45,439 bases of DNA from a virus. Taxonomy: Duplodnaviria; Heunggongvirae; Uroviricota; Caudoviricetes. The notes under the pieces are model-generated. The model made no database searches, was not told the origin of the DNA, and saw only the letters and a program-made list of their open reading frames with translations. Positions 34,649 to 38,734 of this stretch are shown one piece after another (position 1 is the stretch's first letter; each line of letters starts with the position of its first letter). A program made the translations under genes and the position numbers. The stretch is from the IMG/VR virus record IMGVR_UViG_2872678658_000002; one strand, given 5' to 3'.

Positions 34649-34804
34649 TTACTCCTCAGGTTCGTAAGCTGTGAAGACAGCGACCTCCGTCTGGCCGGTT
34701 CGGATTCGTACCTCGCAGAGGTCTTTCCTCGTTACCAGTGCCGTCACAATGACGGTTAAACAGATGACGATCAGGGCGATTAACATCGCCTTTTGCTGCT
34801 TCAT
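34649..34804 (-). CDS. hok: Hok/Gef-family membrane toxin (HokD-like)
   Basis: 51 aa MKQQKAMLIALIVICLTVIVTALVTRKDLCEVRIRTGQTEVAVFTAYEPEE; ORF has in-frame upstream extension to 34861. Confidence 0.85.
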   Translation of the reverse strand: MKQQKAMLIALIVICLTVIVTALVTRKDLCEVRIRTGQTEVAVFTAYEPEE

Positions 34805-35040
34805 AGCCTGCTTCTCCTTGCCTTTCGGCACGTAAGAGGCTAACCTAGATTTGCCGTTCATAGATTGAGCCTCAGATTAATGTTAAGCGTCTTGCAGGAC
34901 GCGTAATGTTAACTGGGGCTTTTCTCTATCTGCCTTTGGTGTTCATGCCTGAGACAGATAGCCTCAAGCACCCGCAGCCATTCTACTTAACTCCCGTTAC
35001 CTCGCCAATATAAAATCAATCAGAAAGGTGATCCATAAAA

Positions 35041-35727
35041 TCACTCCTTCTCTTCTTTTCCGTAGTGGAGTTGGCCAATTTTGATAAGAGGGCGTCCCTG
35101 AGATTTGCGGTGTAGATTGGTATCGCGCAGAGAATACACACAGCCACAATATTCCTGCTGATAGAATTTTTCGCGCTTGCTGATTTCAATCATACGGGAC
35201 GAGCCGCCCTGCTTGCGCCAGTTATAATCCCAGTACACCATACCCGGATAATGCGCAACAGCTCGCCGCCCACACTCGTTAACCTGCTGCATATTTTTCC
35301 AGCGTGAAATGCCCAGTGAACTGCTGATCACACTGAAACCATTTTCAGCAGCGTACAACGCTGTCCGCTCAAAACGCATGTCAAAACACATGGTACAACG
35401 GATCCCCCTCTCAGGCTCCCATTCCATTCCTTTGGCACGTTCAAACCAGTTGTCGGTGTCGTAATCAGCATCGATAAACGGCACGCCGTGTTGTTCAGCA
35501 AAGCGAATATTTTCATCCTTACGAATTAAATACTCTTTCTGAGGATGAATGTTCGGGTTGTAGAAAAAGATGGTGTAGTCGATTCCCGAGGCCTGAAGCG
35601 CCTCCATCACTTCACCGGAACATGGAGCACAGCAAGAGTGCAGTAGTAGTTTGTTTGCCCCGTTTGGGAGCTCCAATTTAGGCCGTTTGAAATCAGCAAT
35701 AGTCATAAATATTTTTATTGGGGTCAT
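35041..35727 (-). CDS. DUF208/QueH-like protein (putative epoxyqueuosine reductase, Fe-S)
   Basis: 228 aa with [11 protein letters not shown] motif plus CTMCF and YCGC cysteines characteristic of QueH family. Confidence 0.65.
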
Positions 35728-35880
35728 GAAAATAGCACAGAGTGTAGCATCAGAGCAGGGCTATCGGGAATATATGTCTAAATCTGGTAATATCTGGTTT
35801 TGACGCAAAGCGGACAACCACGCTGGCTCTACCCTGCGCCATGAAAATGTCAATTCACATCTGAACTAATGCTCTTTAAT

Positions 35881-36306
35881 CTAGTAACGTCTAAAATACC
35901 TAACATTTCCTTGATAAAATGCCAGTACACGCTGCATAGCTTCGCTCTTCCGGCACTCGCGACAGATTATGTTCTGACGCCTGTCGTAGCGACGTATTTC
36001 TCCGTCAGGTAATGACCAGATAAGGTCCGGATCAACCGCAGATGGTTTCTTCAGCTTTGCCCTTGAGAGCTTTTTACGGGCATTTTGCCAGTCCTTACGC
36101 GCCTGTTCAGACGGGAATAACCCGTAACCAGAGTTGTATACATCGCCGCTGGCAACCAGCTCTCTTGCGAGAACGCTCATCAGATATCTTGTCGCACCTG
36201 TCTTGACTTCCAGTTGCCGTAACGTCTCACGCCCACTCTGGCGTACGAGTTCAAAAACCTGTCCTTTAATTTTTTCCCGCTCTTCTTGTGTAAAAACTTT
36301 TGCCAC
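35881..36306 (-). CDS. hypothetical protein downstream of replication initiator
   Basis: 141-aa ORF, basic C-terminal half with CxxC. Confidence 0.4.
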   Translation of the reverse strand: MAKVFTQEEREKIKGQVFELVRQSGRETLRQLEVKTGATRYLMSVLARELVASGDVYNSGYGLFPSEQARKDWQNARKKLSRAKLKKPSAVDPDLIWSLPDGEIRRYDRRQNIICRECRKSEAMQRVLAFYQGNVRYFRRY

Positions 36307-36346
36307 AAGCCCTCCTGAAAATTACCTCATGACCAGAAATTAACAC

Positions 36347-37423
36347 TTACCCCCTGAAGCCCGGCGGAATTTCGTTATCCGGTTCAGAAATATGATTCAC
36401 ACAACGCTGGTTGTTCGTGCCGCTTACCGGGAGCAACCAGGGGTTCTCAAAATTCCGGTCTGGTCCAAAAAACGTCGTCGCTCGCTGAACAAATTCCGTT
36501 CCCGTTTTCCCGGTAGCCGCCAAGTATCTTGCGTAACGCCTCACGCCATCCAGCATGGCCTCTGGTGGCACCCCCTCGCGTAATCTGGCCTTCCAGGCAC
36601 TGAAAGCGGATTTCTTCGGGTTTGCCCCAGCACGCAACGGGTACTCCCGCCAGACCTGTTCGAACACATCCGGATAATCCACTCGTCCCACAGACTGCCC
36701 GGTGTTTTCCGGGACTACCCGATCGGCTTCCCGCTGAATGGCGGAATCGGCTTCGGGCTGCTGCAGTTGGTGTGATTGCTCCGGCCTTGCGGTCATCACC
36801 TGCTGCACAGCGCCCGAATCGGCTTTCAGCGCATACGCTGAATCGGCTTCCGGTGTCGTGCCTGCTGGCTGACCAAGATTGACGGTCTGAACATCCCCTG
36901 CCTGGTTCGTGGCGTTTTTTACGCCATGGACCATAGTGTTTTGATCTTCTTGATCTGTATCTTTATCTGTATCTTTATCTGTCGTGACTCGTCGTGACAT
37001 GTGCGTGACATTTCGTGACGCGCCGTGACAATCGCCATTTTGTTCCCGCTTTCTTTCCCTCTCTCGCTGCGCCCTCTTGCGCTCTGCAGGAGATTTTGCG
37101 GTTTGCGAAATATTGCCGTTGTCCTCTTTAAGCACCTGGCGTTTTTCCCATCCAGTGATTAAATCACCATCAAGTACCCGCCCCTGCATCGTCTGCAAAA
37201 TTGAATCAATTACCTCTTCTGTCACGTCGAGCGCACTTGCCAAATCTTCTGTCGTGACATCAATGTGACCTCGCGTGACATTTCGTGACGCGCTCACCAA
37301 GAGGTGGATATACACTGCCATCACTGTTGCAATTGGCTGCCCTGACACCCTGGCAATTGTTCGCCACTTAGGGTCATTTGGCATGTCATGCCATAATCTG
37401 AGCCAGGCGTTAGCCATACTCAC
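36347..37423 (-). CDS. replication initiator (lambda O-like role) containing its own iteron origin
   Basis: 358 aa; N-terminal winged-helix-like region; two iteron arrays and an AT-rich tandem repeat lie inside the coding sequence. Confidence 0.6.
   Translation of the reverse strand: MSMANAWLRLWHDMPNDPKWRTIARVSGQPIATVMAVYIHLLVSASRNVTRGHIDVTTEDLASALDVTEEVIDSILQTMQGRVLDGDLITGWEKRQVLKEDNGNISQTAKSPAERKRAQRERERKREQNGDCHGASRNVTHMSRRVTTDKDTDKDTDQEDQNTMVHGVKNATNQAGDVQTVNLGQPAGTTPEADSAYALKADSGAVQQVMTARPEQSHQLQQPEADSAIQREADRVVPENTGQSVGRVDYPDVFEQVWREYPLRAGANPKKSAFSAWKARLREGVPPEAMLDGVRRYARYLAATGKTGTEFVQRATTFFGPDRNFENPWLLPVSGTNNQRCVNHISEPDNEIPPGFRG
36983..37029. repeat. iteron array 1: five CGTGAC repeats at 10-11 bp phasing
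   Basis: repeat starts at 36983, 36993, 37004, 37014, 37024; preceded by (TCTGTATCTTTA)x2 and two GATC sites. Confidence 0.7.
37253..37289. repeat. iteron array 2: four (C/T)GTGAC repeats at about 10-bp phasing plus one inverted copy at 37221
   Basis: catttcgtgacgcgc is shared verbatim with array 1. Confidence 0.65.
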
Positions 37424-37488
37424 CTCTTTTGATACCGAATCTTTTTACTCACAAATTGCCGGAAGTGATCCGGTATGAATATTGCGAG

Positions 37489-37914
37489 TCAATGCACAGC
37501 CACAATATTTCCTGCAGGGCCACCACGATTCATCTGGTTGAAACCAGCGATCGCCACTGCGACAAAATCATCAGCGTCTCTCACCAGTCGTTCCCGCGTC
37601 TCCACTAGTTCCCGAAAATAGGCTGAGCTATGACTGCGCATTCGGGCCACCAGCAGAGGTGGCATTGCTTTTTCGATAGCTGGTAACAACGCCTGAATTT
37701 TTTTAACCGCATCAGGGGTGTCTTTCTCCACCCAGCGGAAAATTTTCTGAGTATTGCGAGCCAGGGCTTCCGGATGGCTGTCGTCATACAGTTCCGGGAA
37801 CGTCATTCCCAGCTCGAAATACGCTTTGGTAATTTTCGCAGCCGGTACTTTTTCGCCGTCCGGATGCGCCCAGGCATTCATCGCCATGCGGATGTGTTCA
37901 TGCTTGATTTTCAT
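37489..37914 (-). CDS. YdaT-like protein (DUF1019; cII-position protein)
   Basis: 141 aa starting MKIKHEHI as remembered for Rac YdaT; follows Cro-like gene. Confidence 0.55.
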   Translation of the reverse strand: MKIKHEHIRMAMNAWAHPDGEKVPAAKITKAYFELGMTFPELYDDSHPEALARNTQKIFRWVEKDTPDAVKKIQALLPAIEKAMPPLLVARMRSHSSAYFRELVETRERLVRDADDFVAVAIAGFNQMNRGGPAGNIVAVH

Positions 37915-38165
37915 GAATCAACTCCCATCAGCTTTTTCGTAGTAGTTTTATTCCTGCCAATAGTTAAAATTGCATCGGCAGAAAATAATCCGTTTGATGC
38001 AAGAGCGATTTTTTCAGCGTAATTTGTTTCGCCGGTATATTCTGTGCGAGGCAATTTTCCGTTATCCATCCATTTATAGATTGCTCTTTGGCTGACACCA
38101 CAAACGTCGGCCACAACAGCAACGCGAACAGTTTTGATTACATCTTCAAGTGTTTTCTGGTTCAT
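37911..38165 (-). CDS. Cro-like HTH regulator
   Basis: start placed at Met25 (ATG at 38165) with GAGGGTG Shine-Dalgarno; HTH segment VVADVCGVSQRAIYKWM; divergent from repressor. Confidence 0.65.
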   Translation of the reverse strand: MNQKTLEDVIKTVRVAVVADVCGVSQRAIYKWMDNGKLPRTEYTGETNYAEKIALASNGLFSADAILTIGRNKTTTKKLMGVDS

Positions 38166-38244
38166 ATCACCCTCACAATGTGAACTTTGAGTACATGCTA
38201 TAACAGAACTGACAGTACATTCAAGAGCGAATATCATTGAACTT
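38166..38244. promoter_or_regulatory. OR-like divergent promoter/operator region
   Basis: palindrome TCACAATGTGA (38173-38183) and direct repeats AGTACAT at 38190 and 38214. Confidence 0.5.
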
Positions 38245-38664
38245 ATGGTTCATGAAGATAAAGCGCGTAAAGAGTTCGCCAGTAGGCTTGCGCTAGCCTG
38301 TGAAAACGCTGGTTATGAACAACATGGAAGGCAGGCAGAAATTGCCCGTCGAATGAAATTAACACCAAAAGCGGTTAGCAAATGGTTTAATGGCGAAACA
38401 ATTCCTCGCCGGGAGAAATTAAGGGAATTAGCAACACTAATAGGAACAACACCAACCTATCTTTTGGGAGAGGATACAGAAGAAAGTGGACAGGTACGTT
38501 TCTATCAGGAGTTAAATCCAAGACAAAAAATCATCATTGACCTTCTGGACGAGCTCCCTGACAGTGAGACAGATGAACTTTTAAAAACTCTTGAAGAGAA
38601 AAAACAGAAGTACAATGCAATTTACGAAGAGTTAGCACGAAAGAAAAAACAAAAAGCCTCTTAA
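38245..38664 (+). CDS. CI-like prophage repressor (HTH_XRE)
   Basis: 139 aa; HTH (GRQAEIARRMKLTPKAVSKWFNG); divergently oriented to Cro-like gene. Confidence 0.7.
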   Translation: MVHEDKARKEFASRLALACENAGYEQHGRQAEIARRMKLTPKAVSKWFNGETIPRREKLRELATLIGTTPTYLLGEDTEESGQVRFYQELNPRQKIIIDLLDELPDSETDELLKTLEEKKQKYNAIYEELARKKKQKAS

Positions 38665-38734
38665 ACCAGCATAAATCCGGTAGCGCCTTCCTCCGGGTTT
38701 GTGCTTCACTTTATCCCATCTCATTTTTTTACAC

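Follow-up and report, generated by a model that had tools for sequence, protein, structure and literature searches.

The 45,439-nucleotide stretch of viral DNA analysed here (IMG/VR virus record IMGVR_UViG_2872678658_000002, Caudoviricetes), the whole of which is referred to as the window, carries on its minus strand a replication initiator gene that contains two arrays of short repeats and an AT-rich tract within its own coding sequence. Its product ends in a tail resembling that of the host protein DnaT, and no gene for a recognisable helicase loader was found in the window. The features of the locus, some of which had been pointed out in a preliminary description made from the sequence alone, are the following:

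36347..37423, minus strand: replication initiator gene, 358 amino acids (aa) from a GTG start, PHROG 3729
37145..37408, minus strand: N-terminal winged-helix domain (aa 6-93), presumed to bind the iterons
36464..36676, minus strand: C-terminal helical domain, designated X (aa 250-320, four helices)
36350..36424, minus strand: DnaT-like tail SGTNNQRCVNHISEPDNEIPPGFRG (aa 334-358), proposed docking motif for the host DnaB-DnaC machinery
37221..37289: array 2 (upstream), four direct GTCAC(G/A) copies at 37253-37289 plus an inverted copy at 37221-37226, in the N-domain loop aa 45-68
36983..37029, strand not assigned: array 1 (downstream), five direct GTCACG copies, in the linker, aa 132-147
36940..36985, unstranded: AT-rich tract with 12-mers and two GATC sites, probable DNA-unwinding element
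35881..36306, minus strand: 141-aa DUF977 protein (LygF, 'Ren-like exclusion protein'), PF06163, PHROG 142

The bounds given earlier for the initiator gene are those of a 358-aa open reading frame (ORF) and stand as such, but the start codon may not, as the NCBI annotation places an ATG two codons downstream (37417; 356 aa). That this ORF encodes a replication initiator and holds the origin inside its own coding sequence is supported by its match to the PHROG 3729 family 'replication initiation protein' (E = 5.5e-258) and by the conservation of the in-gene repeats described below. Its NCBI name is 'phage replisome organizer', and the cluster to which it belongs there has 5786 members. No Pfam family was matched at E ≤ 0.01 by any part of the protein, the C-terminal domain included, nor were the lambda O families Phage_rep_O and Phg_2220_C at the same cut-off; neither NCBIfam nor Pfam was informative about the initiator body, the NCBIfam match being confined to the tail. 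Within PHROGs, the N-terminal half matched replisome-organizer families and the C-terminal half matched families annotated as 'DnaD-like helicase loader' and 'primosomal protein'. An AlphaFold model divided the protein into four regions: a confidently predicted N-domain (aa 6-93) of the DnaD/organizer winged-helix type, a long disordered linker with one basic helix, which is where the origin lies, a four-helix C-domain, and a tail predicted to be disordered. The fold of the C-domain (aa 250-320) weakly matched that of the DnaD C-domain. The initiator is a modular DnaD-like phage replisome organizer.

Its relatives are mosaics of the same kind, in which the alignment distinguished three or more N-modules, two or more C-domains and two main types of tail. 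The family of the C-domain is very large, being matched by at least 4000 representatives of 50%-identity clusters (1898 at E ≤ 1e-10), and a DnaT-type tail ended 12 of the 143 best newly retrieved representatives. A homolog search with the C-terminal 114 aa of the initiator returned mostly short or partial proteins. One of the C-domains that occur in relatives is the true DnaT three-helix bundle (PF17948), matching DnaT structures in the PDB at E = 7e-25.

Ten GTCAC(G/A) repeats were counted inside the initiator ORF, nine of them direct (five and four) and one inverted. Read on the plus strand, array 1 consists of CGTGAC at 36983, 36993, 37004, 37014 and 37024 (spacing 10, 11, 10 and 10 bp), and array 2 of CGTGAC at 37253, 37274 and 37284 and of the variant TGTGAC at 37264 (spacing 11, 10 and 10 bp). 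Measured from first copy to first copy, the arrays lie 270 bp apart, and the best register between them is 260 bp. These values agree with the two arrays of CGTGAC-type repeats, about 270 bp apart and phased at roughly 10.5 bp, that had been described in this ORF. Nine exact hexamers fall within 320 nt, whereas the maximum in 200 Markov shuffles of the window was 4. The coding-strand hexamer GTCACG encodes C-H-G, A-S-R, V-T and M-S-R, which means that it is read in all three frames and that the repeats are therefore a feature of the DNA and not a peptide repeat. On these grounds (the use of three frames, the shuffle control and the co-variation with the N-domain reported below), we rejected the possibilities that they were amino-acid repeats or had arisen by chance.

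Immediately downstream of array 1 with respect to transcription, three copies of the 12-mer TCTT(G/T)ATCTGT(A/C) occupy positions 36948-36983, within a tract (36940-36985) whose AT content is 70% versus 48% for the window and which includes GATC sites at 36943 and 36952. GATC sites and an AT-rich tandem 12-mer had already been noticed beside the repeats, and both their coordinates and the base composition agree. By analogy with ori-lambda, this tract is probably where the DNA unwinds. DnaA boxes were not enriched near the origin. Two further segments are repeated or conserved. Just downstream of the AT-rich tract, AAAACACTATGGTCCATGGCGTAAAAAACGCCA (coding strand, 36910-36942; protein NTMVHGVKNAT) contains a small GGCG-A-rich-CGCC palindrome, and its DNA sequence is conserved even where the N-modules are unrelated (loci L004, L006 and L007); it could be an origin DNA element, a protein motif or a recombination joint. 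The other, in the linker at 36722-36853, comprises four occurrences of AATCGGCTT in two imperfect 36-nt copies 96 bp apart and encodes (P)EADSA. We considered it as a second iteron family and rejected it, given that 324-aa alleles of the initiator lack exactly the 34 residues between the repeats; this segment is therefore recombination-prone and dispensable.

Comparison with genes that encode the same N-domain (A-type genes, taken from E. coli, Salmonella, Serratia, Scandinavium and a metagenome assembly) showed 3-5 GTCAC(G/A) copies near codon 45 and another 3-5 near codon 130. The two-array layout was kept in eight A-type genes and also in an unrelated B-type gene, while GATAAA/GATACA-type repeats followed array 1 in 6 of the 7 other A-type genes, the most diverged of them (L005) having an A-rich tract instead. 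The repeat motif switched with the type of N-domain. Two relatives with about 47% protein identity have GTAACG in both arrays, the L007 gene, with an unrelated N-terminal domain, has AAGGGGCTT repeats in two arrays about 256 bp apart with 11-bp spacing, and the unrelated initiator of phage HannyBb has four GGTCAAAATG-type copies. Among five diverged genes, the GTCAC core was invariant at 25 of 25 positions versus 9 of 17 spacer positions, and the spacer changes alter the protein. Insertions that change the copy number were seen in the alignment of relatives in the array 2 loop. In the model, array 2 maps to an N-domain loop whose length varies, and array 1 and the AT-rich tract map to the disordered linker; both sites are places where the protein tolerates a constraint imposed at the DNA level. 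The conserved layout and the co-variation of motif and N-domain are strong comparative evidence that the repeats are iterons, as had been proposed, and that they are specific to the type of N-terminal domain.

No homolog of DnaC/IstB, lambda P, DnaB or a primase-helicase was detected by tblastn anywhere in the 45-kb window. The queries were K-12 DnaC (cut-off E < 0.05) and a set of phage references (E < 1e-3) comprising seven DnaC homologs, three lambda-P-like proteins, a DnaB-like helicase and a primase-helicase, the references having been verified with Pfam. No PF06992-like (lambda-P-type) sequence was present in the window either, and the gene next downstream of the initiator encodes a DUF977 protein. 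These searches uphold the statements of the preliminary description that no lambda P or DnaC-like gene follows the initiator and that the next ORFs are a 141-aa protein and QueH, on which annotation and family matches also agree. Nor is the 141-aa ORF itself a conventional helicase loader by family membership, for it matched DUF977 only. The same module, 94-97% identical, is found in phages Evi and Tritos (96.8% in Tritos), whose complete genomes contained no loader gene by tblastn and annotation, and the whole 38.7-kb genome of phage SPN1S was likewise devoid of DnaC-, P- or DnaB-like genes by both methods. Tritos came from a plaque on MG1655 and was then propagated (PMC9928086). Since the genome of this plaque-forming phage also has no loader, the loader-less state appears to be functional and not the outcome of decay.

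The last 25 residues of the initiator can be aligned with positions 155-179 of K-12 DnaT with 15 identical (60%) and 20 similar residues, and they contain the sequence SEPDxxIPPGFRG, whose terminal IPPGFRG is common to both proteins. The tail matched DnaT entries in the PDB (6aep, 2ru8 and 9zbt_D) and positions 156-179 of the NCBIfam DnaT model NF002770. At the DNA level, only 47 of 78 positions of this region are identical to dnaT, which argues against a recent capture from the host. Beyond the tail we found no resemblance to DnaT. In a BLASTP comparison of the initiator with K-12 DnaT, only residues 155-179 aligned significantly, the N-terminal oligomerisation domain of DnaT and its acidic PriB-binding linker being unmatched. 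The DnaT bundle (PF17948, DnaT residues 84-153) had no Pfam match in the initiator, a comparison of domain X with an alignment of phage DnaT bundles by hhalign gave a probability of 0.1%, and a profile search of the C-domain against the PDB returned no DnaT match. We therefore rejected the idea that the initiator is DnaT-like outside its tail; pairwise tblastn alignments of DnaT with some relatives did extend into the domain (33-36% identity) and were judged to be driven by the tail.

The consensus that host DnaT has in common with many enterobacterial phage initiators is R-x-V-N-x-[IV]-S-x-P-D-x-x-I-P-x-G-F-R-G, and the alternative tail of the other relatives is unrelated to it, with the motif G-x-H-G-G...E-P-L-D-x-E-E. 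DnaT-type tails were also present on other protein bodies, namely the initiator of HannyBb, the YdaU proteins of Gifsy-1/2 and Rac, a Klebsiella phage protein and the initiator of SPN1S. In the phage collection, 48 records contained this tail, the gene at the match being of replication type wherever annotated, and 2 of the matches were the host dnaT gene in Salmonella contigs. The replication protein of SPN1S (L114/L117; JN391180.1, 35140-35955) combines an organizer-type N-domain with a region corresponding to DnaT residues 86-179 at 63% identity, that is, with both bundle and tail.

We then compared the tail of each initiator with the loader gene of its module. A DnaC/IstB homolog lay immediately downstream of initiators with the DnaT-type tail in L004, L005, L006, L107, Shigella phage 75/02 Stx, Gifsy-1/2 and Rac, and these phage DnaC homologs resembled K-12 DnaC along its full length, being 45-50% identical over residues 1-240. 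No loader was found for the same tail in the window, L007, HannyBb, Salmonella L108, Winslowiella L093, Scandinavium L097, SPN1S and Klebsiella phage phi3.2; for HannyBb, L093, L097, L108, L007 and phi3.2 the check covered the fetched flanks of 3-5 kb (in phi3.2, the annotation and tblastn of a 3-kb flank, both negative for DnaC- and P-like genes). A lambda-P-like gene followed the DnaT-type tail in 0 of about 16 loci and followed the alternative tail in 4 of 4 (L002, L003, L091 and Rac-SA53), whatever the C-domain, so that the pattern held in the approximately 20 loci examined with no exception. Relatives of the C-domain from non-enteric hosts have other tails, followed by DnaC-like, DnaB-like, primase-helicase or Pfam-unmatched genes. 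From this association we are inclined, with moderate confidence, to regard the extreme C-terminal tail as the part of the initiator that decides which loader is used. A DnaT-type tail would go with a DnaC-type protein, either the phage's or the host's, and the alternative tail with lambda P.

The host itself has a comparable gene pair. In K-12, dnaT is immediately upstream of dnaC, its stop codon lying 2 nt before the dnaC start (L109; NC_000913.3, 4600238-4601517), and this order matches that of the phage initiator-DnaC pairs of Rac (ydaU-ydaV), Gifsy-1/2 and 75/02 Stx. The shared order suggests that DnaT may have arisen by domestication of a phage initiator's C-terminal half. A more far-reaching proposal, that the shared tail is the missing docking motif for DnaB-DnaC and that dnaT-dnaC as a whole is a domesticated initiator-loader pair which has lost its origin-binding domain, is put forward as tentative and would seem more doubtful than probable.

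Taken as a whole, these comparisons lead us to favour, as somewhat better than an even chance, a reading in which the initiator acts at an iteron origin, imitates DnaT by means of its tail and uses the host DnaB-DnaC directly in a module with no loader of its own. The winged-helix N-domain would bind both iteron arrays on one face of the helix, and the nucleoprotein complex formed there may melt the adjacent AT-rich tract, as at ori-lambda, with the upstream array, some 260 bp away, possibly having an auxiliary or looping role. The helical C-domain might then hold the opened DNA or oligomerise, and the disordered DnaT-like tail would recruit host DnaB-DnaC, with no need for a P-type or DnaC-type protein from the phage. 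The preliminary description had suggested that the module depends directly on DnaC/DnaT-type functions of the host. The DnaC side of that suggestion is in keeping with the tail and with the loader pattern; as to DnaT, the initiator would imitate it and not depend on it.

Several observations weigh against this reading. The role of the second, upstream array is speculation. The roughly 20 loci behind the association are not phylogenetically independent and were sampled unsystematically. The Rac sequence of E. coli 442/2 carries the DnaC-like gene ydaV, and MG1655, the host of Tritos, carries the cryptic Rac prophage, so a loader could have been supplied to Tritos in trans. The only published activity found for DnaT residues 154-179 is a contribution of about two-fold to the affinity for single-stranded DNA (ssDNA) and to cooperativity (PMC4132743). 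Finally, in a 2026 structural study the DnaT N-domain, and not the tail, is suggested to be what recruits DnaB/DnaC, and the way in which DnaT recruits them is stated to be still unknown (PMC13377028).

Some of these points feed alternative explanations, which differ in what the tail is supposed to contact. It may recruit PriA and/or PriB instead of DnaB-DnaC, making the initiator a surrogate DnaT in PriA-dependent loading once the origin has been opened. The docking of the DnaT C-terminal domain on PriA in a preprimosome resolved by cryo-electron microscopy (PMC13377028) is in its favour, as are the genuine three-helix bundles of relatives, with SPN1S reproducing DnaT residues 86-179 at 63% identity. 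We nonetheless consider it unlikely: it leaves unexplained why the tail tracks the loader (DnaC-like or none versus lambda P), the initiator of the window does not have the bundle that contacts PriA, and the DnaT chains of 9zbu, deposited as 154 residues, suggest that the tail lies outside the modelled PriA/PriB complex. Rather less likely still, in our estimate, is that the tail does nothing but strengthen cooperative ssDNA binding at the opened origin, with the helicase being recruited by another surface of the initiator or by a host factor. This would fit the finding that DnaT lacking residues 154-179 has an apparent Kd for dT30 about two-fold higher, and lower cooperativity (PMC4132743). 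A generic DNA-binding tail, though, is not expected to swap together with the loader gene, as the 0 of about 16 versus 4 of 4 lambda P associations indicate it does, and at least four or five unrelated initiator bodies carry it, as is typical of docking motifs that are portable; nor are DnaA boxes enriched near the origin.

The remaining two alternatives look for the missing activity elsewhere. The preliminary description had offered the 141-aa protein as a novel adaptor between the initiator and the host helicase. This ORF matched PF06163 (DUF977) over residues 1-135 of 141 (E = 2.8e-29) and the PHROG 142 family 'Ren-like exclusion protein' (E = 2.2e-46), its N-terminal half resembled the PHROG DNA-binding family phrog_2391 (E = 5.7e-05), and it showed no convincing match to a solved structure and none to AAA+ or lambda-P families. 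DUF977 directly follows the initiator in the three loader-less E. coli modules examined (window/L089, L007 and HannyBb), and the DNA homology between otherwise different initiators covers the tail-coding end together with DUF977. It is, however, also found downstream of loader modules, either lambda-P-like (Rac-SA53) or DnaC-like (L107, 75/02 Stx and Rac), and does not accompany the same tail in Salmonella L108, Winslowiella L093, Scandinavium L097 or SPN1S, none of which showed a loader. Because of this distribution the adaptor proposal did not hold up and has only a very slim chance of being correct; the DUF977 protein is probably not part of helicase loading. Finally, the module could be a decayed, non-replicating remnant that has lost its loader gene, or one served by the loader of another prophage. 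The copy of the prophage in strain DE17, with its frameshifted integrase and IS66 insertion, would agree with decay, and in L107 and Rac a DnaC homolog lies between the initiator and DUF977, where a deletion could give the order seen in the window. Against it, the same arrangement occurs in the plaque-forming Tritos and in Evi, both devoid of a loader over their whole genomes, three unrelated initiator bodies show it, neither the iterons nor the reading frame is disrupted, and at least 80% of the 2.9-kb region is present in 328 complete E. coli genomes. We regard this possibility as highly improbable.

The genomic setting is that of a common lambda-like prophage of E. coli, of which this region is the replication module. 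Over window positions 35800-38700 (2.9 kb), the identity to a lambda-like prophage carried by E. coli APEC IMT5155 and DE17 is 100%; a tRNA-Ser gene and mtfA adjoin that prophage. The count of 328 complete genomes (≥80% of the region) refers to the same stretch, from the repressor gene to DUF977. A scan of viral contigs for the module yielded near-identical copies only. The early-right operon on the minus strand has the order Cro/YdaS-like, YdaT/cII-like, initiator, 141-aa ORF, QueH, HokD, DUF968, RusA and Q, and the genes upstream of the initiator are:

38245-38664, plus strand: cI-like repressor gene
37911-38237, minus strand: Cro/YdaS-like ORF, early-right operon
37489-37914, minus strand: YdaT/cII-like gene, early-right operon

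The start of the Cro/YdaS-like ORF is uncertain (108 aa from the first ATG versus 84 aa, 255 bp, as annotated in DE17). Directly downstream of the replication module are the genes for QueH (epoxyqueuosine reductase, 35041-35727) and the HokD toxin (34649-34861); in Tritos and Evi other genes occupy the position of QueH, which therefore looks like a variable cargo (moron) gene. In the DE17 copy (L001, NZ_CP045206.1) the integrase is annotated as frameshifted, and the IS66-family element has the lysis genes on one side and, on the other, four clustered tRNA genes upstream of Q.

When set beside known systems, the origin is of ordinary lambdoid design, and the protein is of the DnaD/organizer kind and not of the lambda O kind. 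As in lambda, the origin is located inside the initiator gene, with direct repeats followed by an AT-rich tract in the direction of transcription, the gene comes after a cII-like gene in the early operon, and the C-terminus of the initiator would specify the partner that delivers the helicase. Unlike lambda O, the initiator of the window has no sequence relationship to that protein (no Pfam match), no accompanying P gene and a DnaT-type tail. Whereas ori-lambda has a single array of four 19-bp iterons, the window has two arrays of repeats with short cores of 6-8 bp at 10-11 bp spacing. Closer in its tail is the oriJ module of Rac (ydaU-ydaV), together with the O-like/DnaC-like modules of Gifsy-1/2, which share the DnaT-type initiator tail, the position after ydaS/ydaT-like genes and a nearby DUF977 gene (lygF), but which carry their own DnaC homolog immediately downstream and have initiators with a different N-domain and another type of C-domain. 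The ydaU-ydaV sequence used in this comparison is that of the Rac prophage of strain 442/2, not of K-12. The oriJ replicon of K-12 Rac has been used for plasmid building, according to a title cited in PMC11014345.

With DnaT, the initiator shares the 60% identity of its last 25 or so residues, and its close relatives share the PF17948 bundle; it differs in having neither the DnaT N-domain nor a detectable bundle and in being origin-specific, whereas DnaT is recruited to forks by PriA/PriB. Compared with Firmicutes DnaD and SPP1 G38P, it matches neither Pfam Phage_rep_org_N nor the DnaD domain, belongs to a Gram-negative host, ends in a DnaT-type tail and has no dedicated phage loader or helicase; SPP1 has G39P and G40P. 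DopC-DopE is a domesticated pair of O-like and P-like proteins in which the C-terminal part of DopC was replaced by the DnaT C-terminal domain (Brezellec et al. 2017, PMC5509034), and this replacement shows that DnaT modules circulate among phage-derived initiators. Unlike the initiator of the window, DopC is paired with a lambda-P-like protein and has no iterons, and in this it resembles those relatives that combine bundle, alternative tail and P (L002 and Rac-SA53). It is therefore already known that phage-derived O-like proteins can contain DnaT C-terminal domains (PMC5509034), and some of the genes are already annotated as 'primosomal protein I'. No published work on phage initiators ending in a DnaT-type tail came up in our literature searches, and in the literature available to us we did not find described the sharing with DnaT of the extreme tail rather than the bundle in this widespread E. 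coli module, the tracking of loader type by tail type, or the dispensing with a loader by tail-bearing phages.

The origin described here is a clean, conserved example of iterons written into protein loops in all three reading frames. For enterobacterial prophages, in which one and the same gene family at present goes under the labels 'hypothetical protein', 'replisome organizer', 'replication protein O' or 'primosomal protein I', the analysis provides practical rules for annotating replication modules. In the plaque-forming Tritos and two other phages with complete genomes, the initiator is the single dedicated replication protein, assembled from swappable parts. Its last 20-25 residues offer a specific and testable lead on the function of DnaT, namely that the tail may act as a docking peptide. 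If the tail does dock on DnaB-DnaC, the loader-less phages would load the host helicase without DnaA, PriA/PriB, DnaT or a phage loader.

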